30,631 nt of DNA from a virus. A program made the translations under genes and the position numbers. Positions 1 through 30,631 of this stretch are shown one piece after another. Under the pieces are notes generated by a model. That model saw only the letters and a list, made by a program, of their open reading frames with translations, ran no database searches and had not been told where the DNA came from. Every line of letters begins with the position of its first letter. Positions within the stretch are counted from its first letter, which is position 1. The stretch covers positions 118,001 to 148,631 of the IMG/VR virus record IMGVR_UViG_3300045988_175865; one strand, given 5' to 3'.

Positions 1-785
1 ATAAGTAAAAACAACGGAGAATTGTGAACTGAAGATCCTAAGGGGAGTAGTAGACTTATAAGTTTATTTACTTCACAAGATAATAAGTATGGTCTACAAT
101 TAATAGATACAGAAGATGTTAGCACAACCACTCAATATAGACTTACTATAAATAATAGTGACAGGTATTGTACTATTGATTGAATATATATATATATGTC
201 TACTAACGGCTCTGGTTATAATTGCTTTATAGAAGCATATAATCCTAGTTCTGAATCTTGAGATATAATATCTCAGGATGCTGTTTTACAGGGGTGATCG
301 GGACCTAATTTTAGAGCTTTGACATCTTCTATATATTATAACAATTCCCCAAGTACAGCTTCTCAATATTCGAAACTAAGGTTTACATTTTCAACTAGAA
401 GTGTTAGTGAGAACTATAGTGGACAATTGACAGTCTATAGAATTTCTGGATATGGTACTTATGGCTGGAGAATGCCTAACAATATGTCTAAAGTAGGTCA
501 AATATATTCTTGGGATAATGCTCAAAATGTTTCTTTTCCAGGAAGTGTATCGGCTTGAAAATTTATCAGTAATGGGGGTACTAGTACTAATGTAACAATG
601 GGAGATGGATCTCTAAAAGATCTTAAAACTAAACAACTAGTTGTAAACGGTACTATAAATAATTTTTATTCATCAGATAGTGTTGAGGTTAGACTTTACG
701 CTCCTACTTCAGGTGGTACTAGTGGGCAGATTCTTGTATCTAATGGTAATAATGCTCCTAACTGAGCATCCTTAGATAGTTTAGG
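1..785. repeat. Terminal assembly overlap identical to 29847-30631 (circular or circularly permuted genome, unique length 29,846 bp)
   Basis: Direct comparison of the first and last lines gives a constant offset of 29846. ORF 319-558 reappears as 30165-30404. No mismatch seen by eye. Confidence 0.95.
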
Positions 786-924
786 TATTCAGCCTGCTGG
801 AAACTATATTGAAGCTGGAACTGGAACCCAACCTCAAATAAATACGATTACTGTTCTAACTCAATCAGAATATGATGGTTTATCAACAAAAGATTCTAAT
901 ACTCAATATTTAATAGTTGAATAA
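1..924 (+). CDS. Tail fibre protein, C-terminal 307 codons (continuation of 26889-30631 after circularisation)
   Basis: Frame 1 is open from base 1 to TAA 922-924 if TGA at 25, 181, 259, 295, 556 and 763 is read as Trp. It is the same frame as 29400-29873 across the junction. Contains the fibre-type motif GGTSGQILVSNGNNAPNW. Confidence 0.85.
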
Positions 925-925
925 T

Positions 926-1039
926 ATGAATGTAAAGACCGATTTAAAGGGATTTTATGTAGGTGACAGAAAGGGTATTGCCATTTATGTTGGCAGTACC
1001 CAAATCTGGCCTGCAACGACTACAACTTCTAATAAATAG
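926..1039 (+). CDS. Small hypothetical protein (37 aa) downstream of the tail fibre
   Basis: ATG 926 lies 2 nt after the fibre stop; TAG at 1037-1039. Sequence MNVKTDLKGFYVGDRKGIAIYVGSTQIWP. Tight packing with neighbours. Confidence 0.4.
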   Translation: MNVKTDLKGFYVGDRKGIAIYVGSTQIWPATTTTSNK

Positions 1040-1047
1040 TCCTAATT

Positions 1048-1275
1048 ATGATATTACTAAAGAATTCTAAAAATACGCAAACTTTCTATATTGCCAAAAA
1101 GACTGGAATAGAAAAAGGTCAATTACCTATTGGTAGTTATTCAAAAGCAGAGGTAGATGCTTTATTTCAACCAAAAGGAGACTATATAACTGCTAATGAG
1201 TATAATAACAAGATCAACGAGCTAGAAGCAACAATACAAGAGTTACAAAGTAAGTTAGCAGATTCTAATAAATAA
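1048..1275 (+). CDS. Hypothetical fibre-associated protein with C-terminal coiled coil (75 aa)
   Basis: ORF track entry. PKGDYITANEY plus NELEATIQELQSKL resembles the KGDY/coiled-coil segments of the adjacent fibre. Ends in TAA. Confidence 0.5.
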   Translation: MILLKNSKNTQTFYIAKKTGIEKGQLPIGSYSKAEVDALFQPKGDYITANEYNNKINELEATIQELQSKLADSNK

Positions 1276-1326: not shown

Positions 1327-1330
1327 TTAA

Positions 1331-1426: not shown

Positions 1427-1819
1427 ATGTATTACACTCTATTAATTCAGAATACTGTGAGTAAAGAAGTATATACATATAATTTGGAGAATTTAAATTA
1501 TGACGAAAATATTTATTATAAGTTCAATATTGTGCTGGATGATAATACACCTGACGGAGAATACCAATATCTGTTATTTGAGAATCCAAATCAAATTGAA
1601 GTTGTAGTAAACTATAATAACGTCTATGATAGCAAGTTATATGGAGATACTAAAATATTAGTAACGTTTACTAATACACTTACTAATGGAACTCAGATAT
1701 TAATTGCTGGTAAGCCTATTATGTGACTATCTAGTGGATTAATAAGAATAGGAGACTATAAATCTAACAATTATCAATATAATAAACAAAACAAATACCA
1801 AGTATATGACAGAAAATAA
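1427..1819 (+). CDS. Hypothetical protein (130 aa)
   Basis: First in-frame ATG of track ORF 1340-1726. Continues through TGA 1724-1726 to TAA 1817-1819. Overlaps the portal start by 14 nt. Confidence 0.5.
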
Positions 1820-2870
1820 GAAAAGTTTGAAGTTCTCGGCACTAGATCCATACATTGTAAGTAACATAGTAGAGCCTACAGAAAGTAAGAAAAGAGGATC
1901 AGATATGATAATGTGAGGCGATAATAATCGCTATCCTATTTACTTATGGGATCTATATTTAAACTGTGCAACATTACAGTCAATTATCAATGGAACTGCC
2001 GATTTTATCGTTGGAGACGATGTTATTTGTAATAAAGAGGGATTTAACGTAGTTGTTAATAAGAAAGGTGAAACGATAGTAGACATCTTTAGAAAGATAG
2101 CAATAGATAAGATGATTTTTGGAGGATATGCTGTTCAAGTAATTAGAAATATGGTTGGAGAAGTCAGTGAGATTTATCACTTAGATTTTATGAAGATCCG
2201 TTCTAATGAAAAGAATACTGTTCTTTATTATGCAGATGATTGGGAGGCTTGGTCAGTTAAGGCTTTAACTTATCCTAAATATGAGATAAATGATAGTGCT
2301 CCTGCTTCTGTAGTTTATAATAAAGGCTATGTAACAAGAAGCGTATATCCAATTCCAGTTTATGGAGCTGCTCTATTAAGTTGCGAAACTGAGAAGTGCA
2401 TTAATCAATTCCATTTAAATAACCTTAATAATGGATTTATGAGTAATGTTATTATTAACTTTAATAATGGAACTCCTACAGATGAAGCACAAGAAGAGAT
2501 TGAACGTAATATTAACGAGAAGTTCTCTGGATACCAAAATACTGGACGTATTCTTATTTCTTATAATGATTCAGATGTAAATAAGACTACTGTTGAAAGA
2601 CTTGATTCTGATGATTTCGATGAACGATATGAATCATTAGCAACTAGAACAAGAGAGCAAATATTCTGCGCTTTCAGAGCTAATCCTGTGTTGTTCGGTA
2701 TTAATTATGCTTCTGGATTCTCAAAACAAGAGTATCAGCAAGCATTTGATTTATACAATCGAACTATGGTGCAGCCAATACAAAAAGATATTTGTAAAAG
2801 TTTCGATACTATCTTTGGAATGAAAAATTCCGTTACAGTGGTACCTTTTAGTATGAATTGAAATGAATAA
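1806..2870 (+). CDS. Portal protein (354 aa)
   Basis: ATG 1806 to TAA 2868-2870, with in-frame TGA at 1914 and 2859. The N-terminal WGDNNRYPIYLWDLYLNCATLQSIINGTADFIVG and later FRANPVLFG segments look like Phage_portal-type proteins. Recognised by eye. Confidence 0.75.
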
Positions 2871-3456
2871 TTATACTGTTTATTGCCATATTAATAAATA
2901 TAATAATAAAATTTATATAGGTATTACTGGACAAGATCCTAAAAAACGTTGAGGAAATGGGAAAGGTTATAAGAATTCCTTTTTCTTTAATGCAATACAA
3001 AAATATGGCTGAGATAATTTCGAGCATAAAATCCTGTATACTAATTTATCTAAATTAGATGCAGAGCTTATAGAAATAGATTTAATACATTATTATAAAT
3101 CTATTAATAAAAGCTATAATATTGCTAATGGAGGTAATGTTACTACAGGATTAAAGATGTCAGAACAAGCGAGAAAAAACATATCACAAGGGCATATAGG
3201 ACTTAAAAGAAGTGATTCATTTAAAGAGAAGATAAGAGTTGCCAATAAAAATCGTTCTGACGAAATAAAAAGAAAACTGATAGATAGCAATAAACGTCCT
3301 ATAATTCAGCTATCATTAGATGGAGTCTTTATAAACGAATATGAGAGTATTAAAGATGCAGAGTTACAATTAGGGATATGACATCAAAATATATCTAAAT
3401 GTTGTAAAAACATCTATAAAACTGCTGGAGGATATAAATGACAGTATAAACAGTAA
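2863..3456 (+). CDS. GIY-YIG homing endonuclease (197 aa), free-standing between the portal and connector genes
   Basis: YTVYCHINKYNNKIYIGIT (GIY-YIG), KKR-W-GNGKGY (TGA 2950), KYG-W-DNFEH (TGA 3010), NUMOD3-like SEQARKNISQGH, C-terminal KTAGGYK-W-QYKQ. Four in-frame TGA; ends in TAA at 3454-3456. Confidence 0.9.
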
Positions 3457-4122: not shown

Positions 4123-4545
4123 ATGACATATTATGAAATAATCAATGGGCTAAAAGAATCTGCTCTTATGGAGCCTAATATTAATTTCGCTGGCAGTAAA
4201 GATATCTATGAGTTAAATAGCCTTCCTAATATAGATTATAATGTATTCTATATAACTCCAAATACATTTAATCTTGATGAAGATACTATTACATACTCAT
4301 TGAATCTTTACTATGTTGCCAGATGAGATGAAACAGACGAGAATCAACTTGAAGAACAGTCTGCTGGAATTTTAGCTCTTACAAATATAATTAACCGATT
4401 TAATAACACCTATCCTGATGTTCAATTATCTTACCCTTTAATATTTACTCCATTTTATCAAAAGTTCAAAGATATATGTACTGGAATATTTGTAAGAGTA
4501 GATATAATGGTAGATAATGTATTAGGAGTATGCGAAAATATATAG
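4123..4545 (+). CDS. Hypothetical virion-module protein (140 aa)
   Basis: ATG 4123 lies 1 nt after the previous stop. TGA at 4324; TAG at 4543-4545. No family recognised. Confidence 0.5.
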
Positions 4546-5108
4546 TATATATACATATATTTCCAAATGGAAAAAGGTATGTAGGGTTAACAACTCAAGA
4601 TGTTGATTCTAGATGAAGAAATGGGGAGGGATACAAACATCAGTTTGTTTATAAACCAATTAAAAAATACGGATGAAATAATATTAAACATATTATATAT
4701 TACGTAAACAATGAAACAGAAATGAAATATCTTGAAAAATACTTATTTGGTTACTATAATACTACTGATTTAAGATATGGGTATAATCGAACTGATGCTA
4801 ATAATCATCCGATATTTTCTGAAAAAACTAAAAATATTATGTCTGAACTTGCTAAAACTCGAATTGGAAATAAGAATCCATTTTATGGCAAGCATCATTC
4901 ATATGAAACTAAAAATAAAATAAGTATTAAAAATCAAAATATTAAAAATAAGCCAATTGCCCAGTATGATTTAGATGGCAATTTTATCAAATCCTATAAA
5001 AGCATACGATCCGCTTCTAGAGAACTGAGTATTGGCAGTGGTTTAATATGAGCAGTTTTGGCAGGAAGACAGTATCAAACTCATAAATTTATTTTTAAAT
5101 ATTTGTAA
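4530..5108 (+). CDS. GIY-YIG homing endonuclease (192 aa)
   Basis: KYIVYIHIFPNGKRYVGLT, DSR-W-RNGEGY, KKYG-W-NNIKH, NUMOD3-like repeats (TRIGNKNPFYGKHHS), C-terminal PIAQYDLDGNFIKSYKSI module. Three in-frame TGA; TAA at 5106-5108. Confidence 0.9.
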
Positions 5109-5764
5109 TGGAAAACAAATTAAAATGATTCGGACAGGTACTTGATTGAGTTAATAAATACGGGTTATGACAGATTATAAAAGGCGGATTTGCATTTATA
5201 TTTGTATCTTATGTCTTTATAATCTCTCTAAATCCAGGCATTATATATGATAAGGTTGCTACTTACATAGAAAATGTCCATAACGTTAAGCAAGTAATCA
5301 GACAAGATGCAGACATCAAAATACGTTACATCTTGAAAGATTTAAGAGTATCTACAAATGCAGATAGAGCTTGAGTTATTGAGTACCATAACGGTACATC
5401 TGGATTAGGAGGACTTCCATTTACATACGGAATTATGAACAATGAAGAATTAGAAGAAGGAGTATGTTCAGTATCTAGACATTATAGAGACTTCTTGTTA
5501 TCTGAGTATTTGTTTATTTTGGAGACTTCTAAACAAGGTGGATGAATAGGTAGTGTTGAGGATATAAAACAGTATGATACAAAAATGTATTATTCATTTA
5601 AATCTAATGGTGTTAATAAATTAGCTTTATTTTATTTAAAATCGGAATACAGAGATATTGGAGTAGTCGGCCTTTCATATTGTGATAATGAGATGCCAGA
5701 AGATACTTGAGTTAAATTAAGAGATGCAGGAATAAAGATAAGCATAATTTTAAATAAAAAGTAA
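5108..5764 (+). CDS. Membrane-anchored protein of unknown function (218 aa), first gene of the lysis cassette
   Basis: ATG overlaps the preceding stop (TAATG). Codon-by-codon reading is open to TAA 5762-5764, with six TGA (5126, 5147, 5168, 5372, 5543, 5708) and no TGG. N-terminal hydrophobic stretch GGFAFIFVSYVFIISL. The standard-code ORF track shows no ORF here at all. Confidence 0.7.
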
Positions 5765-5765
5765 T

Positions 5766-5927
5766 ATGAAGTATTGGGTAAAGTATTTAATCGCAGTTGT
5801 GATGATTATTGCAGTTTTGGTATTAGTAAAAGTAATTCCTTTCTGGATTACTATGGTATTACTTGCTTTAGCAGTAGGTAGCCATTTATTTTACAGATAT
5901 CTAACACTTAAAGACATTATAAAATAA
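5766..5927 (+). CDS. Holin-like small membrane protein (53 aa, two predicted TM helices)
   Basis: MKYWVKYLIAVVMIIAVLVLVKVIPFWITMVLLALAVGSHLFYRYLTLKDIIK: two hydrophobic helices and a charged C-terminus. Its stop overlaps the endolysin ATG (TAATG). Confidence 0.5.
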   Translation: MKYWVKYLIAVVMIIAVLVLVKVIPFWITMVLLALAVGSHLFYRYLTLKDIIK

Positions 5928-6376
5928 TGAAGTATTTTACAGTAGAGGAGTTAACTGAATCATCTACAGCAATTAAGGAAAATATAGACAACACTCCAAG
6001 TAAGGAGATCACTGAACACCTGATTGAGTTAATAGAGGAACTCTTAGATCCTATTAGAGAAAAATGGGCAGAGTATTGTAATATTAATAAACTTGGAAAT
6101 CCAGCAATAAGTGTAAGTTCAGGTTATAGATGCAAAGAGCTTAATAAAGCTGTAAATGGTTCAGTTACATCTGCACATATGACGGGTTATGCTGCAGACC
6201 TTCAAAATGTCTCTGGAAGTAGAGAAGAGTTTTATCAATTCCTATTAAACTTTTTGAAGGATAGAAATTTCGATGAATGTTTTATTGAATATAATAAGTA
6301 CACTAAGTGAATACACATAGCATTATATAATAGTAAAAAATTACAAAGAAAAAAAGTAGGTAAATTATATGTATAG
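5927..6376 (+). CDS. Endolysin, peptidase M15 family (D-Ala-D-Ala/L-Ala-D-Glu type zinc peptidase), 149 aa
   Basis: SGYRCKELNKAVNGSVTSAHMTGYAADL matches the M15 SxHxxGxAxD zinc-site motif. After TGA 6308-6310 the frame continues W-I-H-I, matching the conserved C-terminal W-x-H zinc ligand. Ends in TAG at 6374-6376. Confidence 0.85.
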
Positions 6377-7084: not shown

Positions 7085-7116
7085 CAAATATAATAATTAT
7101 ATTTTAATTTTCCAAA
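7085..7116 (-). promoter_or_regulatory. Bacteroidota-type promoter (TTTGGAAA, 20 nt, TATATTTG) directly upstream of gene 6914-7081
   Basis: The reverse complement of 7085-7116 is TTTG-gaaaattaaaatataattat-TATATTTG. This is the same -33/-7 architecture and 20-nt spacer as the three promoters at 8990-9191. Confidence 0.55.
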
Positions 7117-8831
7117 TTAAATACGAATTTTTTATTTAAAATTACATAACCTTCTACTTGTTTACCTTCAATTCTTTTTTGGCACTTTTTAACGTCGTAG
7201 TATTTGTCAATCTCAGTAGCTTTAGGAGCTGTAGTAATTCCTGCAACAGTATAAGCATCTTTTATATACTTCTTAATATCTGCATTAGAATATCACATTC
7301 CAAGGCTTAAATGCTCATTTAATTTCTTTGCAGCTTTGTTATCTGTAGATTTATTAGAAGCTTTGAGTAATTCATCTTTAATTGCGCTAATGCAATACTT
7401 TAAACTTGCCATTTTCTCAAATCCGAGCTTTGTAATAGCATCCATTAACCAAGGATATTTAATCTTAGCATTATCTAAGATAGGAGTTGCAAATCTATAT
7501 TTTACTTCCCATTCAGCTCTAACATCTTTAATAAGCTCTTTAAATGGTTTGGTATCTGAATCAAAGTCAATCTTAATTGAATTATCCTCGCATTCTACAA
7601 CCTTTTTAAAGCCATTCTTTAAATACTCATTATTAAGATTAGTTCTAATTGAATATAAACCTCTTGTAACCTTGAAGTTAAATATATCGACTTTAGCCAT
7701 ATTAGGATCAAACGTAAAGGTATAATCATCATTTACTTGAATATAAGTATCACTGGTAAACTCTTTAAGTTTCTTTCTTGCAACTTCTGGCATTGCATTA
7801 TAAGCCTCAACTGCAATTTTAGTCTCTTCGATATTCTGGAGATTCTTCTTTCTAAAATCCTCATAAGATACCTCAGCGTATCTTGTTGCAGAATATAAGT
7901 GAGTAATCCAATTTAAATACTTACTATTTCTAATTCTACCAGCAATCTGCTGAATTGAAGTTGAAATATCAAGTAATGTCTGAGCTTTCTGAGCATCCGA
8001 AACTACTACAATACGTCCATTTTCATCATAAATATCAGAACCTTCAAATACTGTAGAAGTTAATAAGTTGATCTTTTTAGGTTCATCTAATACAGTAGAG
8101 TTCTTAATTGTAAGTTTAGTCTTGTTATTCTTTGAATAGATAACTCTTGTATTTGATTCATTTAATTTAGCCTTCTGAATAAGGTTCTTTATAAAGTCAA
8201 CTGAGTTAACAAAGATATATACATTACCTTCAACTTGATTATTTAAAACTGCAGTTATAAGTTTAATAGTTGAAGCCTCAACATTCTTACATTTAACAGC
8301 CTGAACTTTAGTCTCTATAACATCATCCCATTCTTGTTTTACTAATGGAAGATCTTTTAATTCATCAAGTACAAACTCTTCTTCAAGTGGAGTTGCAGTC
8401 ATAAAAGTATACTCTTTAAAGAGCTTATAGTTATCAAGTACAGGTTTAATAGCATCCTTTCTAAAGCTATACTGATTAAAAAGAATATGATATTCATCTA
8501 CTAATAAACTATAATCTTTAGGATTAACTGCTGAAATAACTTTTGGTAAAGAGTTATAAGTAACAATGATTTTAGGGCAATTAACTCGTTTTACATAATC
8601 TTTAATCTCTGCAATAGTTACTCCAGCAAATACACCGAAGATCTCTTCTGTACGTCTTTCATTAGGATACTGTTGAATCTTGTTCTCAACTAAACTGGTA
8701 AAAGGAACACAAATAACATAAGGCTTGTTACATTCAATAGCCATAGAAGTTCCACCACAACCAACTTTTCCTTTGTCAAATAAGCAGTTAGTAGGTAATT
8801 CATTGATTAAATTATTTAAATAAGTTTTCAT
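7104..8831 (-). CDS. SF2 (DEAD/DEAH-like) helicase, 575 aa including a 62-aa extension past an in-frame TGA
   Basis: Track ORF 7293-8831 carries LLVDEYH (motif II), MTATP (motif III) and QQIAGRIRN (motif VI). Motif I is atypical (GKVGCGGTS). The frame stays open through TGA (complement of 7293-7295) for 62 more codons, to the TAA complement at 7104-7106. Confidence 0.75.
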
Positions 8832-8989: not shown

Positions 8990-9021
8990 CAAAGATAATA
9001 CATAAAATTTCAATTTCCAAA
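8990..9021 (-). promoter_or_regulatory. Leftward promoter P-L1 (TTTGGAAA, 20 nt, TATCTTTG)
   Basis: The reverse complement reads TTTG-gaaattgaaattttatgtat-TATCTTTG, matching the Bacteroidota -33 TTTG / -7 TAnnTTTG consensus. About 150 nt upstream of the helicase ATG. Confidence 0.6.
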
Positions 9022-9078
9022 TAATTTTGCAATTATTTTTAATAAATTTTTTATTTATTATCTCTTACTTTCATAGTA

Positions 9079-9110
9079 CAAATATACAACATTATTTTTA
9101 AATCTCCAAA
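9079..9110 (-). promoter_or_regulatory. Leftward promoter P-L2 (TTTGGAGA, 20 nt, TATATTTG)
   Basis: The reverse complement reads TTTG-gagatttaaaaataatgttg-TATATTTG. It is a tandem copy of the P-L1 module, 89 bp further upstream. Confidence 0.55.
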
Positions 9111-9159
9111 TATTTTTATGAAAATAATTTAAATTTTTTTGAAAAAAGTTGTTAAAAAA

Positions 9160-9191
9160 TTTGGAGATTGGATAAAAATGTATTATCTTTG
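9160..9191 (+). promoter_or_regulatory. Rightward early promoter P-R (TTTGGAGA, 20 nt, TATCTTTG)
   Basis: TTTG-gagattggataaaaatgtat-TATCTTTG lies about 45 nt upstream of ATG 9237. It shares the 16-mer ATGTATTATCTTTGTA with P-L1 in inverted orientation. Confidence 0.6.
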
Positions 9192-9236: not shown

Positions 9237-9416
9237 ATGAAAACTAAACAAATTGAAGCACTTGAATATTTTCTTAATATATTAGATGGTAAGATTACTG
9301 AAGATGGTTCTATTGAGAAAGCTCAAGAATTATGTAATGAGGCATTAAAGGAGATTGAAACCAATGAAAAGGTAAAGAAATCCTCTTGGTTTTTTGGTTT
9401 AGGTATTTCTTTCTAA
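9237..9416 (+). CDS. Early hypothetical protein (59 aa)
   Basis: ATG 9237 to TAA 9414-9416. First ORF downstream of P-R. No family recognised. Confidence 0.5.
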   Translation: MKTKQIEALEYFLNILDGKITEDGSIEKAQELCNEALKEIETNEKVKKSSWFFGLGISF

Positions 9417-9427
9417 TATATTTAATT

Positions 9428-14241: not shown

Positions 14242-14274
14242 AATTTAAAGTTTTTATTTTTCTTATACCTAAAA

Positions 14275-17011: not shown

Positions 17012-17013
17012 TT

Positions 17014-20454: not shown

Positions 20455-23135
20455 TGGCACAAACAGAAATTAAAAAGGTTATTAGTATTGATACTAAGTC
20501 AAGTAATAAGTCAATAAACTCTTTAAAGAAAGATATTGATGCATTAACTAATTCGCTGAATGATTTAGAGATTGGTACTAAGGAATATAATGAAACTCTT
20601 TCATTACTTGGTAAGAGACAATCAGAATTCAATAAAATTAATGAGCAGATAGCAAGATCTTCAAGAACTACTGCTCAAAGGTTTGAAAGTGTAGCTAAAA
20701 TATCCACTGGTTTGGCCAGTGGATATGGAGCTGCAACAGCTGCCATTACTTTATTTGGGAAAGAATCTGAGGATTTAAATAAAGTAATGGTTAAGTTACA
20801 ATCTACTATTACTTTAGTTCAAGGTGTGGGAGGTATAAAAGATTTATTAGAAGAATTGCCTACTTTAGGTAATTGGTTTAAGAAATTAACTGATTTTATC
20901 TCTCCATTTAATACAGGGTTGAATAATGCTGCCAAAAATCTTAATCAGATTGATGCATCTAAGCTTAATGGCATTGGCACATCTGTTGGTAATGTTGGAA
21001 CTGAATTAGGTAATATCTCTAAAGTAGTCAAGGATTTAGAAGGCACCAATATTAATTTTAAAGGAGGTATGATTCAAGGAGTAATGGGCACTCCTGCTGA
21101 AATATCTGCTACTAATAAGAGTGTATCTAAGACGATTCCGATTATAGGTAAATTAAATGATAGTACTAAAAAAGCTCGTAATAGTATAGCTGTAATCAAT
21201 GAACAATTAGAAAGACTAAAAAGAAATTCTCCTGGGATAGCTGCAGTTCTTAATAAACAAGCTGAAGCATCTAATGCAGCTGCTAAAGGTGCTGCAGAAT
21301 TAGCTTCTGGAGTAGGTAAGGTTAAAACTGCACTTAAAACTATTGGTAATGTAACTGTATGAATTGCATTAGCTACAGCTATTGGATTAGCTATTAATAA
21401 GATAATAGAGTATATATCCTCAATAAAATCAGCTGAAAAGGAGGCTGCTGAATTTAGAAAGTCTATTACAGATACTACTAATCAGATTGCTTCTAAATCT
21501 ATAGCTATCTTTAGAGAGTTACAAATAGCTTACGAAAGGGTTGGAGATTCTGCAGATGCTAAGCGTAAGTTTATAGAGCAATATTCAGATAAGATTAAAG
21601 AGACTGGCTTAAATATCACTGATGTAAAGACTGCAGAAGATGCGTTTGTAAATAATACTGGTAATTATGTAGAAGCATTAACTGCAAGAGCAAAAGCTCA
21701 GGCTATTGAACAGGCTGCAATTAAGCTTTATGAGGAGTATTTAAACAAACGTACTGAACTGGAGAATCAAATTTCTGATACAAGCTTTGGAGAGGCATCT
21801 GCTTGGCAGGCTTTTAAAGCTACAGCAATGTTCTGAAAAGATTATTCTAATACTATTTATGAGTACACTAAGAAAAATAAAGAGAATACTTATAAACAGT
21901 TGGATGATTTAAATAAAGACATTGAGAAAAGGCTTAAAAAGCTATTTGAGGATGTAGCAGATACTAATAAAAAGTATGGTGAATTCTTTAATATTCCAAC
22001 TATTACAAAGAACACTACTGAAGCTAAGAAGGTAATTAATGAATTTGATGAATGGCTTCAAAAGAGATTAGAGGATAAAGATCCAGTAGATGAACTTGAA
22101 GATGAATATATTAGACTATTAGCATTAGCTATTAAGTATAATAGGGGAATTGAAGAGGTAGAAGCTTGGCATCAGGAAGAACTTAAAAAGATTAGAGATA
22201 AAGCTAGAGCTGATGAAGAAGCTAAGCGTAAAGCAGATGCAGATAAAGCTTGGAATGATCTACAGTCTGAATTAAAAAGGATTAGAGATTTATCTTCTAC
22301 AAGTAATTTGAGAGAGCCAAGAGAGCAGACCTTTCAGACTACTTATACTCAAGGTATATCGAAAGCATTTGGATTGGCTGGAGATTATGAAGGGACTGGT
22401 TATAAATTTACATATCAGAGTAGAGAGGACTTAGAGAATCAATACAATGCTCAAATTGAATACAATAACAACTTACTCTCATTAACTCAAGGTAGAATAG
22501 AGCAAGAGAATGCCTTATTAAGTCAGCAATTAATGAATGAACAATTAACTGCTGAACAAAAAGAGGAAATTCAAAGAACTCTTACTGAGAATAATATGGC
22601 CTTATCAGATGCTCAATTAGCTAATGAACAGGCAAATACTCAGGCTTATCAAAATCTTCAAAAAGCAAGGCAGCAAGCTTTACAGGGAACTTTATCTGTA
22701 GCTTCAAGCATTGCAGGAAGTATGGCAAGTATTTGGGGAGAGGAAAGTAAAGTAGGTAAAGGATTTGCTACTGCTCAAGCATTAATTGACACTTATTCAG
22801 CAGCAAATAGCGCATACTCTGCTATGGCAGGAATTCCTATTGTAGGTCCTGCTTTAGGTATTGCTGCAGCTGCAGCCGCAGTAGTTGCAGGTATTGCAAA
22901 TGTTAAAAAGATTTGAGAAGTAGATGAATCAGGTGCAAGTGGAGTGAGTGGAGCATCTGCAGCAGTGGCAGCACCAGCTGCTTTAAATACAGCTCCTGTA
23001 GAATATACTCGGAACTTACTTGGAGATAAAGAAACAGACCAACTTAACAATCCAATTAAATGTTATGTTGTTGAATCTGACATTACAAATGCACAGACTA
23101 AAGTGGCAGTTACTGAGTCTAATGCAAGTTTCTAA
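20454..23135 (+). CDS. Tape measure protein (893 aa)
   Basis: Track ORFs 20454, 21900 and 22944 are in the same frame, joined through TGA 21360, 21834 and 22914. Long coiled-coil regions, Gly/Ala-rich hydrophobic segments (GIPIVGPALGIAAAAAAVVAGI). Its ATG overlaps the preceding stop (TAATG). Confidence 0.8.
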
Positions 23136-23154: not shown

Positions 23155-23232
23155 GCCTACTATGTAAGTTACTGTAAATCAGTGCTTATATAGTAGTGCA
23201 ATGTCAAAATTTTATTTATCTTAGATACCTGT

Positions 23233-23332: not shown

Positions 23333-23926
23333 ATGGAAAATATGTATAACGAACTGCCACTATATCAAGCAGTAATAACTGACGATTTTGATGGCATAGA
23401 ATATGTAGCTTTAACATCAAAGCCAGCTACTCAAGTAAACTGGGTTGCATTTAATAACTCTTTGAAATTCTCTATGGATGAAGATCAACATCTTGTGACT
23501 TCTTGTTTAATGGTATGTGATATGCCAATTTTTAGACGAGATGACAATTTGGGAGAATATTATATCCAATATGATAAAGAGACTTTAAGAGCAATGGCTG
23601 AGAAGATGATGAGGGATAAGAGAACTGATGCTGTTAATATAGAGCATTTAGAAGATTCTTCGATTCCTGGAATTGTACTACAAGAACTTTACATTAAAGA
23701 TGAGAAAAGAGGAATTTCTCCAATAGAATTCAAAGATGTGCCTGACGGTTCTTTATTTGTAACTTACAAAATAAATAATCCTATTATTTGGGATGCTATT
23801 AAAGCTGGAAAGTTCAAAGGCTTCTCTATTGAAGGCTTATTTACTTTAGAACGTAAGAGTGATGAATATACAGAACTTAAAGAGATACAAAGAATGTTGA
23901 AGAAGATAAAACGAATTAAAAAGTAA
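23333..23926 (+). CDS. Putative prohead protease, XkdF-like (197 aa)
   Basis: Sits directly before the scaffold and capsid genes. NIEHLEDSSIPGIVLQELYIKD ... IIWDAIKAGKFKGFSIEG resembles XkdF/S78_2-type phage proteases by eye. No TGA. Confidence 0.55.
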   Translation: MENMYNELPLYQAVITDDFDGIEYVALTSKPATQVNWVAFNNSLKFSMDEDQHLVTSCLMVCDMPIFRRDDNLGEYYIQYDKETLRAMAEKMMRDKRTDAVNIEHLEDSSIPGIVLQELYIKDEKRGISPIEFKDVPDGSLFVTYKINNPIIWDAIKAGKFKGFSIEGLFTLERKSDEYTELKEIQRMLKKIKRIKK

Positions 23927-23929
23927 ACT

Positions 23930-24541
23930 ATGAGCAAATTCACTAAAATCAAATTAGAGCTTGCCAGAATGTTGGCAAAATTCAGTGATCTGAAAACTTC
24001 AAATGGGGTCTTAACTTGGGATTCTGACGAAGATCTTAAAGCTGGAATGGATGTTTATGTAATGGATGAGAATGGCGAATACGCTCCTGCTGCTGATGGT
24101 GATTATGTTACCGAAGATGGTAAAACTATCGTAGTTAAGGAAGGTCGCGTTGAATCAATTACTGATCCTAAAGCTGAAGTAGATCCAGAGGAAGGAATGA
24201 AAACTGTTGAGGTAGCTGCTGCTTGCGGAACTAAGAAAGTAAACGCTGCTGAGGAAGAAGTTGCAGATCCTATGGTTCAAACCGATGGTGTTAAAGAAAG
24301 TGAAACTGATGCCATTGATGCAATTCATAGAGAGATTAATGAGCTTTATGACATTGTAGACAAACTTACAAAGAAGGTTGCCGAGCTTGAAGCAAAAGGA
24401 ACTGAAACAAAAGAGACTGTTGAGAAAATGAGCAAAATGAGTGCTGCTTTCTCTGCAGAAGAAGAGATTGAAACAAAGCGTACTACTCCTACAAGTGGCA
24501 ATGCAGAAATAGATAGAAAGCTTAAAAACTTTATTGGTTAA
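23930..24541 (+). CDS. Putative scaffolding protein (203 aa)
   Basis: Acidic, with a coiled-coil segment (REINELYDIVDKLTKKVAELEAKG). Lies between the protease and the major capsid gene. No TGA. Confidence 0.5.
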   Translation: MSKFTKIKLELARMLAKFSDLKTSNGVLTWDSDEDLKAGMDVYVMDENGEYAPAADGDYVTEDGKTIVVKEGRVESITDPKAEVDPEEGMKTVEVAAACGTKKVNAAEEEVADPMVQTDGVKESETDAIDAIHREINELYDIVDKLTKKVAELEAKGTETKETVEKMSKMSAAFSAEEEIETKRTTPTSGNAEIDRKLKNFIG

Positions 24542-24562
24542 TAATTTAAAAATTAATAATTT

Positions 24563-25462
24563 ATGAATCCTGTAATGACTTCTTTGACTGCTTATGTTGA
24601 GCAGCGTAGATTACCTCTTATTAAAGAGGCTGTATTAAAAGCTAAGAGTGCTAGTTTATTTAACTTACAGACTGATATTAAAACTTCAGCTGCTCTTAAC
24701 TTACTTTCAACTGATGTTGAATTTGGAGATGGTCTGACTTGTGGATGGGATGAGGCTGGAACGCAGACTCTTTCACAACGAGTTCTTACGACTGGAAATA
24801 TAAAGATTAATATGGCTTATTGCGACAAAGCTATGCTTAAATATTGGACTCAGTATCAGGTTCGCGTTGCTGCTGGTCAGAAAACGCTTCCTTTCGAAGA
24901 GGACTTTATTAGTGGTGTAGTTGAGAATGTTAAAGCCGCTATTGAAACCGCTATCTGGCAAGGTGATACTAGTTCTGGTACGAACAACCTTAAATATTTC
25001 GATGGTCTGTTAAAGATCTTAAAAGATGCTGCTGGTACTGTTGATGTAACGATTACTGGTACTTCTGCTTACGATGACATTATGGCTGTTTATAACGCTA
25101 TTCCTGAGAAAGTACTTGATGGTGCTTCTATCTTAGTAGGTGCTGATACCTTCCGTAAATTCGTCCAGGAGTTAGTTGCTAAGAACTACTTCCATTATAG
25201 TGGTGAGAATCTTAATGGTGAGATTATGCTTCCTGGTTCGCAGGTTAAAGTAATCGCTGTTAATGGTCTTAACGGAACTGACAAGATCGTTGCTGGTCAG
25301 CTTGATAAGAACTTCTTCTATGGCTGCGATATGATGAACGACGAAGAGAAATTCGAAATGTGGTATTCGCAGGATTTCAGAGAATTTAGATTAGCTATTG
25401 AATTTAACGCTGGTGTACAGGTTGCATTCCCAGATGAGATCGTACTTGGTGTAAAAGCTTAA
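24563..25462 (+). CDS. Major capsid protein, HK97 fold (299 aa)
   Basis: Size, position, and motifs typical of Phage_capsid proteins (AIWQGD, YFDGLL, ...FRLAIEFNAGVQV). Codon usage is visibly shifted to GCT/GGT/CGT/CAG. Four Trp, all TGG. Confidence 0.85.
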   Translation: MNPVMTSLTAYVEQRRLPLIKEAVLKAKSASLFNLQTDIKTSAALNLLSTDVEFGDGLTCGWDEAGTQTLSQRVLTTGNIKINMAYCDKAMLKYWTQYQVRVAAGQKTLPFEEDFISGVVENVKAAIETAIWQGDTSSGTNNLKYFDGLLKILKDAAGTVDVTITGTSAYDDIMAVYNAIPEKVLDGASILVGADTFRKFVQELVAKNYFHYSGENLNGEIMLPGSQVKVIAVNGLNGTDKIVAGQLDKNFFYGCDMMNDEEKFEMWYSQDFREFRLAIEFNAGVQVAFPDEIVLGVKA

Positions 25463-25505
25463 ATAATAGATAATCAGTAATTTATAACTAAAATAATCTG
25501 AACAT

Positions 25506-26273
25506 ATGAACCGAATTGGGAACGTTTATATAATTACAAATACTATAAATAACAAAGTTTACATAGGTCAAACTATAAGAAATATAAGACAAAGATTTAG
25601 TGAGCATATGTCTCTTCATCAGAGAGGCAATGCTCATCTAAAATCTGCAGTATTAAAATACGGTAAAGAATCTTTTAATATAGAGGTATTAAAGACTTTA
25701 GAGACTAATAATGAAGATGAACTCTTTAAGTTTCTAGATAAATGGGAAAAGTACTATATAAAGAAGTATAAGTCTTATGATTCTGAGTTTGGCTATAATA
25801 TTGATTTTGGAGGTCAATTAAATAGAGTGGTATCTGATGAATCTAGAAAAAAGATAAGTGAATCACATAAAGGTGTTAAGTTATCTCTTGAGAGAATAGA
25901 AAAGCAGAGAGAATATATGAAGAATCATCCAGAAAGATGGATTGATCCTATACATAATATAGGTAAACAACTTTCTGAGGGACATAAACGCAAAATATCT
26001 GAAGCTCAAAAAGGAGAGAAGAAAAATATGTGAGGGAAACATCATAGTGATGCTACCAAAGAAAAACTTAGTAAAAGTGTCAGTGCTGCTATGATTAATA
26101 AGTATGGTAAACCAGTATTGCAGTATTCATTAGATGGAGAATTTATTAAAGAATGGAATTGTATAATGAATGCAGCTAAATCATTTAATAGTAAGCGTTC
26201 TCATATTCCAGATGTATGTAATGGTAAAAGATCTTCTTGTTTTGGTTATAAATGAAAGTGGAAATACGAATAA
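25506..26273 (+). CDS. GIY-YIG homing endonuclease (255 aa) inserted between the capsid and tail-tube genes
   Basis: GNVYIITNTINNKVYIGQT (GIY-YIG), LKYGKESFNIEVL, repeated NUMOD3-like SESHKG / SEGHKRKISEAQKG, C-terminal KPVLQYSLDGEFIKEW...FGYK-W-KWKYE. TGA at 26031 and 26253; TAA at 26271-26273. Confidence 0.9.
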
Positions 26274-26294
26274 TTAATAAAGTTTAATAAATAT

Positions 26295-26813
26295 ATGGCT
26301 TGCTTAATAACGCTTAATGGAATTACACTTGATTGCCAGCCTTCGTTAGGTGGTATCAAACGAGTTTGGATTACTCAATATTCAGATGTAAAATCTGTAG
26401 TTGTAGGTGATGACAATATGATTGAAAGTATCACTTTAGAGGGTGAAGCTCAATGGTATGAGTATCAGTTCCGTAAGGCTACTGGTTCTTTAACTTCAAC
26501 TCTGAATGTTGACGAATCCGCAGGAGTTAACTATGTAAGTAATGAGTTAGCTCTTGTATTTACAAAGATGGAAACTGCTAAGAGAATTGAAATTGCAGCT
26601 TTATCGATCGGTCAGCTTGCAGTTGTTGTTGAGGATAGTAATGGTCATTACTGGTTCCTTGGTAAAGATGATTATGTAAGCGCTTCCGCTGGTACGGGTG
26701 TTACTGGTACTGCAAAAGGTGATCAGAATGCTTATACTCTGACTCTCTCTACTGATTCGGATTCTTATCCTTATGAGTTGTCAGCAGAAGCTATTGCTGC
26801 AATAGTTGGATAA
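26295..26813 (+). CDS. Major tail (tube) protein (172 aa)
   Basis: Size, position, and a pattern typical of siphovirus tube proteins (GGIKRVWITQYSDV ... AVVVEDSNGHYWFLGKDD ... DQNAYTLTLS). No TGA. Followed by a strong terminator. Confidence 0.65.
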   Translation: MACLITLNGITLDCQPSLGGIKRVWITQYSDVKSVVVGDDNMIESITLEGEAQWYEYQFRKATGSLTSTLNVDESAGVNYVSNELALVFTKMETAKRIEIAALSIGQLAVVVEDSNGHYWFLGKDDYVSASAGTGVTGTAKGDQNAYTLTLSTDSDSYPYELSAEAIAAIVG

Positions 26814-26820
26814 TCAGATT

Positions 26821-26859
26821 AAGAGCGGGTAATTAATTTTACTCGCTCTTATTTTGTTT
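26821..26859 (+). terminator. Rho-independent terminator after the tail-tube gene
   Basis: AAGAGCGGGTAA / TTACTCGCTCTT forms a 12-bp stem with one G-U pair and loop TTAATT, followed by ATTTTGTTT. Confidence 0.75.
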
Positions 26860-26888
26860 ATAGACATTAATAATAAAAATTATATAAT

Positions 26889-29800
26889 ATGGAAAATCTA
26901 TTACCCTATTTAAATGTACTTGAGGCAGACACTATTACAAGGGATAATGTAAACAAAGCCTTAGTAATAGATAAAGATGATAATATAGCTCTTTTAAATG
27001 GAGAAGATTTAGGAACTAATAATTATCAAGATCTGCAAAATAAGCCAGAAATAAACGGAGTATCTTTAAATGGAAATCTTACTGCAAGTGAGTTAGGATT
27101 AGCATCTACTAGCAATATACCTACTAAAACTAGTCAATTGACTAATGATAGTGGGTATATTACTAGCTTAGATGGATATGCTACAGAGGAATGAGTAAAT
27201 AGTCAAGGATTTGCTACTAATGAATCTGTTACTGAAGGTTTAGCTGAAAAACAAGATAAATTAGTTAAAGGTAATGGAATCAATATATCTGGAAATACTA
27301 TATCTGCTGATTATAGTTCAATAGATAATAAGCCATCTTTAAATGGTAAGACTTTAGAAGTCTCAACGAACATAGTTCCAGCAATACAGGTTCAAGCAAT
27401 ACCTACTAAATTGACTATTACTCCATCTTTAGGTAATCAAACTGGACAAGCAGTTGAACTTCCTGGATATGATACAAATACTAATGCTTCTGGTATTTTA
27501 ACATCTCAAGTATTTGGTATTCTTAATGATAAGTATACTAAAGAAGAAATAGACAATATTAACAGTGCGATTAATACAGCTATTTCTAAAAAACAAGATA
27601 AATTAACAGCAGGAGCTAATATACGAATTGTAGATAACGTTATATCTGCATTTAATAATCATTTATTCTTACATTTAGATGAAAATGATACAGAACATCA
27701 GGCTTATGTATATTCTTTTATTAAGTCTAATTTAGAGTTCTATTTATTTGCTGAGATCACTTACGAAGGCAAAGTAGTAGTTCTTCCTTTAGTTGCTATT
27801 GAAAACAACGAATCGTTAGATTTAAAAGGAATGTATCTTAAAGATGATTCTACAATCGTTGAGGTATCTGCAGTTTTAGTAGCTAATGGTAATATGACTG
27901 TTAAAGTTACTGAGGTTGATCTTACTAATAAAGTATATACTAAAGAAGAAGTAGATGCCAAACTTGAGGAAAAACAAGGAGTATTTGCTCCACAAGCTCC
28001 ATTAGCTTTTAATGAAGATAAATCCCAATTATCTGTAGATTTATCTGGATACCAACCAGTTGGTGATTATGCTTTAAAGAGTGATATTCCAACTAAAGTT
28101 AGTGAGCTTACTAATGATTCTAACTTTGTAACTGAAACAGAGGTTTCTGGAGATTTAGCAGGTAAAGCAGATAAGACTTATGTTGATGAGCAGCTTGCTA
28201 CTAAACAGCCTGTAGGAGATTATGCAACAAAAACAGAACTTGCTGGTAAAGCTGATTCTTCTGTGGTAGAATCTTTATCTACTCAAGTAGCAACTAATAC
28301 TTCAGATATATCAATTATTAAAACAAAACAAGAAGAAGATGGAGATAAGATTGATTCTCTTGATAAAGAGATGGCTACCAAACAGGATACTCTTGTTAGT
28401 GGAGAATCAATTAGAACAATTAACAATCTTTCTTTATTAGGGGAAGGTAATATTAATGTAGGCGATGTTCCTTCTATTACAGTAGAAAATGAACAAATAC
28501 CAAATGAGACAGATTTTAATAGAGTTGCAGAAGCTGCGGCAAATAATAGAGCTGTTTTAATTAGAATTAAAACTACTGAAATGACGTTAACCTCTAATTA
28601 TTGACAGTATACCTCTTCAGAATCTCAGAGAGGCTTTGTTGCTTATGCAACATATTTATCAGAAACTAATAACATAACTCTGACGGCACATATTATAGAA
28701 AATCAACCAGTTATGGTAGAAACTTATGATAAAGAATTACAAGAAGAGTTAGTTTCTGGGACTAATATTAAAACTATTAATGGTACTGCTATACTAGGAT
28801 CAGGTAATATAGACACTCCAGATAGTAAGGTTACTAGTGCTGCTAATCACTATACTCCTGTTGGAGGAAGTGCTACATCTGGAACTATTATAAATTCTAT
28901 TACTAAGGATGAGAAAGGACATATTATAGATATAGGGGTTGCTAATGGTATAGATGCTGGTAAAATTACCTCGGGAGTTATTGATATTGAGAGATTGCCT
29001 AAGGGAGCACTGGAGCGTTTAGTAATAGTTGCAAATAAAGCAGCAAGACTAGCTTTAACCACTGAACAAGTACAAGAAGGCGATACTGTTAAAGAGAAAG
29101 ATACAGGTGTAATGTATTTTGTTATTGATTCTTCTAAATTAAATAGTGAAGATGGCTACTCTATTTATACAGCAGGAGCAGCATCTAGTGTGCCTTGGTC
29201 AGGAGTGACAGGTAAACCTGATTTAGTTAACTCGGTTAAGTTAGTACTGCCAAGTTCCATATTCATTAATTCTGAAAGTACACTTACAGGAAATGCAGAA
29301 TTAGGATCATCTTTAAGTACACAAAACGCTAATACAGTATGAGCAGCTCCAAGTGGCACATCTGGGGTACCAACATTTAGGAAATTAACTTTCCTAGATA
29401 TGAATACAGTAACGTCAGATAAATTTAACTATATACCCCAGACATTTAAAGGAGGAAGGCTAGTAATTAATTATAAAAACTCTGCTGGGGGTCAAAATAC
29501 TGACAACACTATAACAGAATACCAATTTGGAGATGGGGCCAGTAATCTTACATACATAACAGCAAAAGGTTTTAAAACTTCGGAAAATAATGGACACAGG
29601 GTACTATGTTCAAATGGATCTTCCAAATTATTGTATGGACCATCAACTCCTGGAACAGCAGGACAAGTATTAATTTCAAATGGGTCATCAACTCCTGAAT
29701 GGGGAAAAGTACCTATAACTAGTATAGGAGGACCTACTGTTGATACTGCGACTTCTAATACTGTACCATATGGAATTACTTCATATATTGGGGAGTACCG

Positions 29801-30631
29801 TTCTGATAAATTAGCGTTTATAAAGAGCACTGATTTATATGGAGAAATAAGTAAAAACAACGGAGAATTGTGAACTGAAGATCCTAAGGGGAGTAGTAGA
29901 CTTATAAGTTTATTTACTTCACAAGATAATAAGTATGGTCTACAATTAATAGATACAGAAGATGTTAGCACAACCACTCAATATAGACTTACTATAAATA
30001 ATAGTGACAGGTATTGTACTATTGATTGAATATATATATATATGTCTACTAACGGCTCTGGTTATAATTGCTTTATAGAAGCATATAATCCTAGTTCTGA
30101 ATCTTGAGATATAATATCTCAGGATGCTGTTTTACAGGGGTGATCGGGACCTAATTTTAGAGCTTTGACATCTTCTATATATTATAACAATTCCCCAAGT
30201 ACAGCTTCTCAATATTCGAAACTAAGGTTTACATTTTCAACTAGAAGTGTTAGTGAGAACTATAGTGGACAATTGACAGTCTATAGAATTTCTGGATATG
30301 GTACTTATGGCTGGAGAATGCCTAACAATATGTCTAAAGTAGGTCAAATATATTCTTGGGATAATGCTCAAAATGTTTCTTTTCCAGGAAGTGTATCGGC
30401 TTGAAAATTTATCAGTAATGGGGGTACTAGTACTAATGTAACAATGGGAGATGGATCTCTAAAAGATCTTAAAACTAAACAACTAGTTGTAAACGGTACT
30501 ATAAATAATTTTTATTCATCAGATAGTGTTGAGGTTAGACTTTACGCTCCTACTTCAGGTGGTACTAGTGGGCAGATTCTTGTATCTAATGGTAATAATG
30601 CTCCTAACTGAGCATCCTTAGATAGTTTAGG
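26889..30631 (+). CDS. Tail fibre protein (1293 aa in the circular genome; cut by the window end, true stop equals 922-924)
   Basis: Track ORFs 26889, 27411, 28713, 29400 and 30165 are all in one frame, separated only by TGA (27192, 28602, 29340, 29871 and five more). Repeated fibre modules: TKTSQLTNDSGYIT / TKVSELTNDSNFVT, QPVGDYA, LVSGTNIKTINGTAILGSGNI / LVSGESIRTINNLSLLGEGNI, GTAGQVLISNGSSTPEW. Confidence 0.85.
29847..30631. repeat. Second copy of the terminal assembly overlap (equals 1-785)
   Basis: See 1-785. Confidence 0.95.

Follow-up and report, generated by a model that had tools for sequence, protein, structure and literature searches.

Evidence for UGA as a tryptophan codon in a tRNA-free 30-kb gut phage with a probable Bacteroidales host

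The window considered here is the whole 30,631-nt stretch of viral DNA that was analysed, and a preliminary description had proposed that its entire genome is recoded, with TGA read as Trp. We asked whether TGA is indeed a Trp codon, how far the recoding extends, and by what means the phage would have the codon decoded. Stop-codon recoding in uncultivated phages was reportedly described by Ivanova in 2014, and UGA-to-Trp recoding itself is of an already known kind, of which this phage is a further case.

Genome and reading of TGA

The window contains the complete genome of a human-gut, non-integrating tailed phage. The genome measures 29,846 bp (29.8 kb), with an exact 785-nt end overlap (positions 1-785 are an exact repeat of 29847-30631). 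Two larger contigs, of 193 kb and 175 kb, also carry the phage and, in the parts seen, resemble chimeras of the variant or concatemer type, not a bacterial chromosome (89,040 bp, for example, is 3 x 29,680). Among cultured phages, no match was found by megablast with 18.6 kb of the genome or by tblastn with the capsid and DUF6712 proteins, and the large terminase (TerL) retrieved only distant terminases of Thermus, Halorubrum and jumbo phages, at below 30% identity. A TerL search yielded 1294 homologous protein clusters at E <1e-10, and this 30-kb gut phage family is abundant.

Intervals without a stop and ≥100 aa long covered 74% of the window under table 11, 92% with TGA opened and 76% with TAG opened. 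The longest interval grew from 527 to 1251 codons when TGA was opened, and recoding of TAG or TAA gave no comparable gain. With only TAA and TAG as stops, 36 tightly packed gene models were obtained over positions 1..30631, at a coding density of 94.9%. They contain 56 sense TGA codons in frame (about 60 had been counted by hand) and 70 TGG codons, with no internal TAA or TAG, and the Trp frequency is 1.33% counting TGA and 0.74% not counting it. Thirty models end in TAA and six in TAG; the one starting at 5766 stops at a TAA at about 5924-5926 when the sequence is read directly. The earlier statement that all genes end in TAA or TAG thus holds for the 36 models, but it is true by construction, because the genes were called with TGA open; the real test is the comparative one, which came out in favour of recoding. 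In these models no gene requires TGA as a terminator, and for two TGA codons located 2-7 codons before a gene end (2859 and 10863) both a stop and a sense reading are possible.

The comparison set consisted of about 49 related genome fragments and provided 536 distinct comparisons at the window's TGA sites. TGG was found in at least one relative at 37 of 55 sites. It accounted for 128 of the 536 codons, Gly for 3, and other replacements were mostly Tyr or Phe, a spectrum (Tyr 29, Phe 18, Gly 3) like that at the window's TGG sites. In TerL, TGA and TGG were mixed at all three Trp columns of 35 sequences, and at portal position 1914 TGA occurred in seven and TGG in five distinct relatives. Outside the clade, the TGA at 6308, which encodes residue 128 of the M15 peptidase, corresponded to TGG in 32 of the 33 GTDB homologues whose alignment covers the site; these homologues are mostly from Bacteroidales and nearly all readable in the standard code. 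A profile of four GIY-YIG domains, by which alone I-TevI was reached, aligned a TGA to Trp in that enzyme's KRW motif, and PDB sequence searches with M15, one GIY-YIG protein and TerL did not resolve the TGA positions. These three independent lines (TGA/TGG interchange, the M15 TGG and the I-TevI Trp) support TGA = Trp (table 4). The proposal of recoding was therefore borne out by an ORF gain specific to TGA and by TGA/TGG exchange among relatives, and the suggested homologue alignments placed Trp at the M15, GIY-YIG, TerL and portal sites without a preference for Gly.

Gene content and uneven use of TGA

TGA occurs in 21 of the 36 genes, which make up 80% of coding bases. All genes in this paragraph lie on the + strand. 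The portal protein (1806..2870) has two TGA (1914, 2859), and the adjacent GIY-YIG/NUMOD homing endonuclease (2863..3456) has four (2950, 3010, 3379, 3439) and zero TGG. Three occur in a GIY-YIG-like NUMOD1/NUMOD3 endonuclease (4530..5108; 4614, 4674, 5049), followed by a membrane-anchored protein of 218 aa with no function assigned (5108..5764), which is unrecognisable in table 11 because it contains six TGA; it has zero TGG. The Peptidase_M15_3 endolysin (5927..6376; E = 5e-17) is adjoined by a small membrane protein. Further downstream are an HNH_3/NUMOD4 homing endonuclease (10091..10585; TGA at 10154 and 10571), an HTH protein resembling sigma-70 region 4 (10870..11115; one TGA, at 10972, with TGA in nine and TGG in five relatives) and a 109-aa membrane protein (11109..11438) with three TGA, including the TGG-TGA pair at 11271-11276 that had been recognised as WW. 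TerL (12208..13455) is T4-type, starts at Met13 of a longer ORF and has two TGA (12652, 12766) and one TGG. Three large tail genes (14825..23135; 728, 1146 and 893 aa) contain 13 TGA in total, and the 893-aa product looks like a tape measure protein by position and composition, without a family match. The tail fibre (1293 aa, with a Phage_tail_C tip domain) has nine TGA and extends from 26889 through 30631 over the terminal overlap to window position 924.

The preliminary positions at 2950, 3010 and 6308 were each confirmed in frame, while some of its counts required adjustment: 17014-20454 has six TGA and seven fragments instead of six, 20454-23135 has three TGA and four fragments instead of three, and the fibre, given as five fragments at 26889-30404, runs on to 30770. 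The C-terminal GGY-x-W-x-Y motif ascribed to four endonucleases is present in 2863-3456 and 10091-10585, appears as FGY-K-W-K-W in 25506-26273 and as a decayed remnant at about 6540-6585, and is absent from 4530-5108.

Two groups of genes depart from this pattern. The early SF2-type (DEYH) helicase-like protein (7104..8831, - strand; 575 aa; motifs read in the translation) has one TGA (7293) and four TGG, and lineage-wide its Trp codons comprise 2 TGA vs 43 TGG (2/45). Three TTTG-N20-TAnnTTTG promoter matches lie in an early control region (8990..9191). The + strand early promoter is followed first by two genes (9237..9667, + strand; 59 and 79 aa) with zero TGA. Across the lineage, early genes have TGA at 4 of their 67 Trp codons, and the remaining genes at 486 of 1055 (Fisher p = 2e-12). 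The capsid module (23333..26813, + strand) encodes an XkdF-type protease and a scaffold-like protein together with two products whose roles are assigned by position, the major capsid protein and possibly a tail tube protein; these four genes have 0 TGA and 10 TGG, and TGA accounts for 1 of 26 capsid Trp codons (p = 8e-6). The GIY-YIG endonuclease that interrupts the module (25506-26273, + strand) has two TGA. The term "whole genome" was therefore an overstatement: TGA is a sense codon, but 15 of 36 genes are free of it, and its avoidance is systematic in the capsid genes and in the early helicase operon. This early avoidance is not absolute, because the first + strand early gene of a 58%-identity clade has a TGA; near the early promoter, exceptions are also found at codon 25 of 9667-10104 and in the HTH regulator. 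Overall, the TGA share is 0.49, vs 0.74 A-ending in other purine-ending codon pairs (p = 1e-6).

Host and source of UGA decoding

We searched for a decoder in the phage itself. ARAGORN detected zero tRNA genes in the window and 43 related fragments (L001-L035 and eight of L036-L051), Rfam gave no tRNA match at E up to 5, and relaxed ARAGORN settings gave no credible tRNA with a UCA anticodon. When the early intergenic region was folded in search of a hidden suppressor RNA, the sole structures were one long hairpin rich in AT and another resembling a terminator. Domain scans recognised no release factor, synthetase or other code-change machinery in any phage protein, and nothing related to translation turned up when the small early proteins and those of unassigned function were scanned with PHROGs and Pfam. 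Such machinery is reported in only 15-35% of code-4 phages, and is thus typical but not strictly defining; among the code-4 genomes of Borges et al. (bioRxiv 10.1101/2021.08.26.457843), only 35% had a detectable TGA suppressor tRNA.

Several features point to the host. The Bacteroidota-type promoter TTTG-N18-22-TAnnTTTG has four matches, all in early intergenic DNA and with N20 spacers, at 8990-9021 (-), 9079-9110 (-), 9160-9191 (+) and 7085-7116 (-). Across 19 distinct relatives, as well as the 58%-identity clade, both boxes are kept (TTTG-N19-20-TAnnTTTG) and the spacers vary. The sigma-70 consensus TTGACA-N16-18-TANNNT showed no enrichment. Nearly no gene has a Shine-Dalgarno site, and about 85% of 80 M15 homologues in GTDB genomes are from Bacteroidales, isolates included. 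A syntenic relative (L169; 49% TerL identity, equal GC) has 0 in-frame TGA in 15 genes, 3 of which end in TGA; no intermediate relatives emerged when IMG/VR was scanned again with a profile of TerL. No CRISPR spacer match or prophage connects the phage to a host, and TerL offers no such link because it was not found in GTDB species representatives. Judged from these sequence features, a Bacteroidales using the standard code is the probable host; the phage's code would therefore differ from that of its host, as in the phages of Borges et al.

The explanation we favour, with some confidence, is that of a recoded gut phage (UGA = Trp, with only UAA and UAG as stops) infecting a standard-code Bacteroidales host, with a decoder other than a phage tRNA. 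Infection would start from host-type promoters, and the first genes expressed, the helicase operon and two small proteins, would be readable by the unmodified host, being nearly TGA-free. UGA = Trp would then be required for the HTH/sigma-like regulator, terminase, tail, fibre and lysis genes and the homing endonucleases. The likeliest decoder, as a guess, is host tRNA-Trp(CCA), enabled to read UGA by a small early protein that may either neutralise release factor 2 or alter host tRNA-Trp. Decoding UGA may be costly: TGA is used less than other A-ending codons and appears purged from the capsid genes, presumably the most highly expressed. A more specific form is tentative: a TGA-free immediate-early product (59, 79, 56, 55 or 36 aa, or the helicase-like protein) might disable release factor 2 or remodel host tRNA-Trp as a minimal, tRNA-free code switch, after which a standard-code Bacteroidales would read UGA as Trp for the rest of infection.

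The main alternative, that the phage shares its host's code and need not switch anything, is appreciably less probable than the favoured explanation, but a serious contender. It agrees with the lack of a suppressor tRNA in the window and related fragments scanned and with the presence of TGA in early, middle and late genes. With some 500 sites for each codon, TGA and TGG have the same +4 context. The window by itself gives a hint of a difference (T follows 13% of TGA vs 28% of TGG) that is gone in the larger set, and a bias at TGA might be expected were release factor 2 still competing. The whole clade is recoded, down to about 50% TerL identity and at a stable TGA share of about 43%, which would also fit a host natively reading UGA, and a second, unrelated code-4 phage has the same endolysin family. 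Many table-4 phages merely match Mycoplasma or Spiroplasma hosts (Cook et al., PMC11210395), and a 4-bp-stem tRNA-Trp(CCA) that reads UGA as Trp without a UCA-anticodon tRNA occurs in many phyla; Bacteroides oleiciplenus is among the species with both forms, although this is a host feature and, for the inferred host, a lead only (PMC13092985). Against a shared code, the promoters, the lack of Shine-Dalgarno sites and the endolysin relatives indicate Bacteroidales, whereas the bacterial UGA-to-Trp lineages in PMC13092985 and the Borges preprint are Mycoplasmatales, Patescibacteriota, Pseudomonadota and Verrucomicrobiota, with none in Bacteroidota. The M15 peptidoglycan peptidase and the small membrane protein beside it argue against wall-less Mollicutes, a standard-code syntenic sister phage exists, and strong gene-specific avoidance (helicase, capsid) together with general under-use is unexpected for a fully native sense codon. 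Mycoplasma and Spiroplasma phages likewise read TGA as Trp without a suppressor tRNA of their own, but there it is the native code of wall-less hosts, unlike the peptidase and Bacteroidota-type promoters found here.

UGA is the leakiest bacterial stop codon, and a few TGA lie close to gene ends. It is nevertheless very improbable that TGA is still a stop and that the long frames reflect low-level readthrough, programmed frameshifting, pseudogenisation or assembly error: with nine TGA in the fibre gene, and two further genes having six each, no product would be left at any realistic readthrough rate, protein sequence downstream of TGA is conserved in relatives, TGA and TGG exchange in the same alignment columns, and assembly error is refuted by dozens of independent assemblies (IMG/VR, ENA and Logan) that have the same codons. 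Reading TGA as Gly (table 25) in an Absconditabacteria or Gracilibacteria host, although code-25 phages occur in human-associated samples (PMC10746230; Borges preprint), was excluded, with practically no chance left to it by 3 Gly vs 128 TGG among 536 comparisons and by TGG in 32 of 33 M15 homologues.

Relation to known recoded phages and significance

Recoded crAss-like phages resemble this phage in AT-richness, stop-codon reassignment and Bacteroidales hosts (here inferred), as well as in BACON-like domains of tail proteins, for which the matches here are weak. CrAss-like phages have an RNA polymerase gene of their own and, usually, suppressor tRNA genes. Their reassignments are TAG-to-Gln or TGA-to-Trp (Yutin et al. 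2021, PMC7886860), and code 15 was validated by Peters et al. 2022 (PMC9523058). They are, however, about three or more times larger (~99-190 kb for recoded genomes from westernised human guts; Borges preprint) than this 29.8-kb phage with its T4-type terminase. Also comparable are the code-4 gut phages of Borges et al., including Garnet, Amethyst and Topaz (22-34 kb), which share gut origin, TGA = Trp, a predicted standard-code host (theirs Bacteroidetes or Firmicutes), close standard-code relatives and recoding mostly outside the earliest genes (here only the few helicase and early TGA codons and one in a sister clade). Unlike in those phages, whose capsid genes are enriched in the recoded codon, the capsid genes here avoid it, and integrase, tRNA, RF1 and TrpRS are all absent from the phage genome.

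As the preliminary description had warned in general terms, annotation with table 11 breaks up genes, here 21 of 36 in an abundant family of gut phages. Public records are already damaged: M15 endolysin calls are cut to 127 aa at the TGA (JGI entries, DAZ42929.1). The genome also bears on how recoded phages lacking suppressor tRNAs get a stop codon read, and it offers a compact system for the mechanism because it is small, complete and tRNA-free, with a standard-code sister and about six TGA-free early genes.

UGA codons at tryptophan positions

The two ends of the window (30,631 nt, 30.4% GC) are identical over 785 nt, with 1-785 matching 29847-30631 exactly, and the sequence therefore represents a complete genome of 29,846 bp that is circularly permuted or terminally redundant. 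Because of this exact overlap, the apparent gene fragment at 1-924 is the C-terminus of the tail fibre gene starting at 26889; the fibre, which the preliminary description had confined to 26889-30404, extends from 26889 through the overlap as far as 924 and comprises 1293 amino acids with 9 TGA codons. Pfam searches identified a portal protein, a T4-type large terminase (TerL, 12208-13455), an XkdF-type prohead protease, a weakly matching capsid, a DUF6712 protein, a Peptidase_M15_3 endolysin (M15, 5927-6376), a helix-turn-helix (HTH) protein resembling sigma-70 region 4, three GIY-YIG and one HNH homing endonucleases, and the Phage_tail_C tip of the fibre, and no integrase was found in the genome. 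In a cultured-phage collection, TerL had only distant relatives (<30% identity); searches with the DNA and with the capsid and DUF6712 proteins gave no match. Past the TAG stop of the gene at 13457-14098, a plausible protein is read in another frame at 14099-14250 ('...WHQVYDMNVKEFLNLICYIIDKGNEEKRQIEE-W-KRRH'), which may represent either an extension reached by frameshifting or a small gene missed by the annotation.

Intervals without a stop codon and no shorter than 100 codons made up 74% of the window when read with table 11 and 92% with TGA opened, a gain in line with the recoding proposed in the preliminary description, and the longest interval grew from 527 to 1251 codons. Opening TAG lifted coverage only to 76%, and table 15 was excluded. 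When TAA and TAG alone were allowed to act as stops, 36 genes occupied 94.9% of the circle and contained 56 TGA and 70 TGG codons in frame; 21 genes, amounting to 80% of coding bases, carried at least one TGA, and the Trp frequency was 1.33% with TGA counted and 0.74% without it. Every position previously cited as TGA proved to be an in-frame codon, and genes were indeed fragmented by TGA, into numbers of pieces that differed by one or two from those first reported. Finding only TAA and TAG at gene ends does not constitute independent evidence, since the calling rule imposes these termini; the model starting at 5766 terminates with a TAA read in the sequence at about 5924-5926. Assembly error, raised at the outset as an alternative, does not explain the TGA codons, because they recurred in dozens of independent assemblies.

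Relatives were collected by an IMG/VR search with TerL, which yielded 34 sequences of ~30 kb each (TerL identity 51-98%), with a single gut virus collection as the source of almost all of them, and by further look-ups in ENA and Logan. All three Trp columns of TerL were mixed across 35 sequences, with TGA/TGG counts of 9/25, 32/3 and 5/30. When every distinct sequence context was entered once in a genome-wide alignment count, the codons or residues opposite window TGA sites were TGA (289), TGG (128), Tyr (29), Phe (18) and Gly (3); TGG occurred in at least one relative at 37 of the 55 window TGA sites covered, and the replacement spectrum of window TGG sites was the same as that of TGA sites. 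Outside the lineage, 33 GTDB homologues of M15 were aligned as far as the residue encoded by the TGA at 6308, and 32 of them have TGG there; a profile of four GIY-YIG domains placed the first TGA, at 2950 and 4614, against the Trp in the I-TevI (1mk0) motif KRW. These alignments show that UGA stands at tryptophan positions, as the preliminary description had claimed, and the tabulated residue was Trp rather than Gly. Table 25 was excluded by the same count.

Probable host and search for a decoder

The host is probably a member of Bacteroidales, an assignment that we infer from promoters, the lack of Shine-Dalgarno sequences and endolysin homologues. Primary-sigma promoters of Bacteroidota carry TTTG at -33 and TAnnTTTG at -7. 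This consensus had four matches in the window, with 1.3 expected by chance over its whole length, and all four were located in early intergenic DNA, three on the minus strand (7085-7116, 8990-9021 and 9079-9110) and one on the plus strand (9160-9191). Across 19 distinct relatives, and likewise within a clade at 58% TerL identity, both boxes were conserved and the spacer sequence was variable. Almost all genes are missing a Shine-Dalgarno sequence. Among M15 homologues in GTDB genomes, about 85% of the best 80 belonged to Bacteroidales (taxa included Alistipes, Rikenella, Prevotellaceae, Muribaculaceae and Bacteroides, with isolates on megabase scaffolds among them), and the standard code gave a good reading of nearly every one of these 80 loci. 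The endolysin and an adjoining small membrane protein argue against wall-less Mollicutes. Two large tail proteins (14825-20454) have weak matches to BACON and viral BACON_2 (E ~0.004, under Pfam cut-offs), which fit a Bacteroidales host and are not significant alone. TerL was not found in GTDB representatives. Contigs of 193, 176 and 89 kb that carry the phage or its kin look like concatemers or variant chimeras. In the largest (L036 and L042; ENA ERZ28596505 scaffold_39, 193,455 bp), the embedded phage has a fibre that diverges directly after '...NWASLDSLG' into another C-terminus (1873 aa) and is followed by more fibre genes; this scaffold looks like a strain-variant chimera rather than a prophage.

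ARAGORN detected a tRNA neither in the complete genome nor in any of the 43 related fragments on which it was run, and no Rfam match to a tRNA was obtained even at E = 5. Relaxed ARAGORN searches gave only noise, with no intergenic candidate for a tRNA with a UCA anticodon, and Pfam searches found no release-factor or tRNA-synthetase domain in the genome's proteins. Absence of a suppressor tRNA is typical of predicted code-4 phages, since Sup-TCA tRNA was found in only 35% (Borges preprint, 10.1101/2021.08.26.457843) or 15% (PMC11210395) of them.

Phage code and host code

We consider it somewhat probable that the recoding is specific to the phage and unlike the code of its host. The contig L169 (ENA ERZ28436104 NODE_310, 89,040 bp, GC 30.6%), whose length of 3 x 29,680 suggests a concatemer assembly, encodes a TerL of 49% identity and has the same order of HTH gene, terminase, tail genes and protease. 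None of its 15 genes contains an in-frame TGA, and three, TerL among them, terminate in TGA; a phage with the standard code is thus sister to the recoded clade. TGA is also avoided in particular genes. Across the lineage, the helicase-like early gene (7104-8831, minus strand) has 2 TGA and 43 TGG; pooled genes adjoining host-type promoters have 4 and 63, compared with 486 and 569 elsewhere (Fisher p = 2e-12), and in the genes for protease, scaffold, capsid and a possible tube protein the counts are 1 and 25 (p = 8e-6). The TGA share in ordinary genes is 0.49, compared with 0.74 A-ending for other purine-ending codon pairs (p = 1e-6), and is near-neutral only in homing endonucleases. Together, the sister, the gene-specific avoidance and the general under-use suggest that the first genes must be readable by an unmodified cell and that decoding UGA has a cost. 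Neither feature is expected if the host itself reads UGA as Trp, an explanation that we regard as possible and distinctly less probable. It is favoured by the equal +4 context of TGA and TGG, the conserved TGA in the gene at 9667-10104 and in the HTH regulator, a TGA in the first early gene of the 58%-TerL clade, and recoding throughout the clade to which the phage belongs (median TGA share 0.43). No Bacteroidota are among the bacterial UGA-to-Trp lineages named in PMC13092985 and the Borges preprint (10.1101/2021.08.26.457843).

Under phage-specific recoding, host RNA polymerase would start from the conserved early promoters and TGA-poor early products would come first; some factor would then allow UGA to be read as Trp, permitting synthesis of the HTH/sigma-like regulator and of terminase, tail, fibre and lysis proteins. 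As candidate routes, RF2 might be inhibited, so that UGA would fall to the near-cognate tRNA-Trp(CCA), or tRNA-Trp(CCA) might itself be edited or remodelled.

Candidate control regions, mobile elements and other recoded phages

A 45-nt repeat ending AAAAAACTTGACA is present in three copies (1284-1328, 14251-14295 and 23209-23253), which immediately precede the late operons for head/portal, tail and capsid, respectively. As candidate promoters of these operons, the repeats may be recognised by the HTH/sigma-like protein of the phage (10870-11115); TATAAT at 17 nt occurs only in the third copy. At 10578-11115, overlapping small ORFs of 102 aa (no Pfam match) and 81 aa (HTH_50/sigma-70 region 4-like domain) are kept in relatives and in L169 (1328-1943), and might represent a sigma-like factor divided in two. 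In the interval that separates the early promoters from the start of the helicase gene, the minus strand contains a long AT-rich hairpin (8983-9073) followed by a terminator-like hairpin (8932-8952), both within a 161-nt stretch (8915-9075) of -39.3 kcal/mol (z = -7.1); the region at 8932-9073 is not tRNA-like and may be an operator, origin or attenuator. A decayed GIY-YIG endonuclease at 6369-6585 retains 48 N-terminal amino acids, a stop and a C-terminal 'AYGYR-W-EYI' in a different frame, and related fragments L037, L038 and L040 have an intact 235-aa endonuclease at this position. The endonuclease at 2863-3456, behind the portal gene, is missing from fragments L037, L040 and L041, and its insertion altered the portal C-terminus.

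Recoding of TGA to Trp in uncultivated phages was reportedly described by Ivanova in 2014. In uncultivated gut phages it is established (PMC7886860, Yutin 2021; PMC11210395; PMC9610469; Borges preprint, 10.1101/2021.08.26.457843), and small recoded clades of 22-34 kb have already been described (Borges preprint). TGA recoding also occurs in an unrelated phage (L050 and L051, ENA contigs of 126 kb and 38 kb, ~32% GC) whose M15 endolysin belongs to the same family: coverage rose from 65% to 95%, three TGA codons stand at Trp columns of its M15 gene, and ARAGORN found no tRNA in the fragments seen. A Bacilli MAG contig from GTDB with an M15 homologue (L067) looks TAG-recoded, since opening TAG takes its coverage from the 57% of table 11 to 95%. 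Particular to the present phage are the complete, tRNA-free 29.8-kb genome, the probable Bacteroidales host, the standard-code sister and the avoidance of TGA in the earliest genes and in capsid genes, the avoidance in capsid genes being opposite to the late-gene enrichment of the recoded codon in the phages of Borges et al. These features make this phage convenient for asking how such phages switch code.
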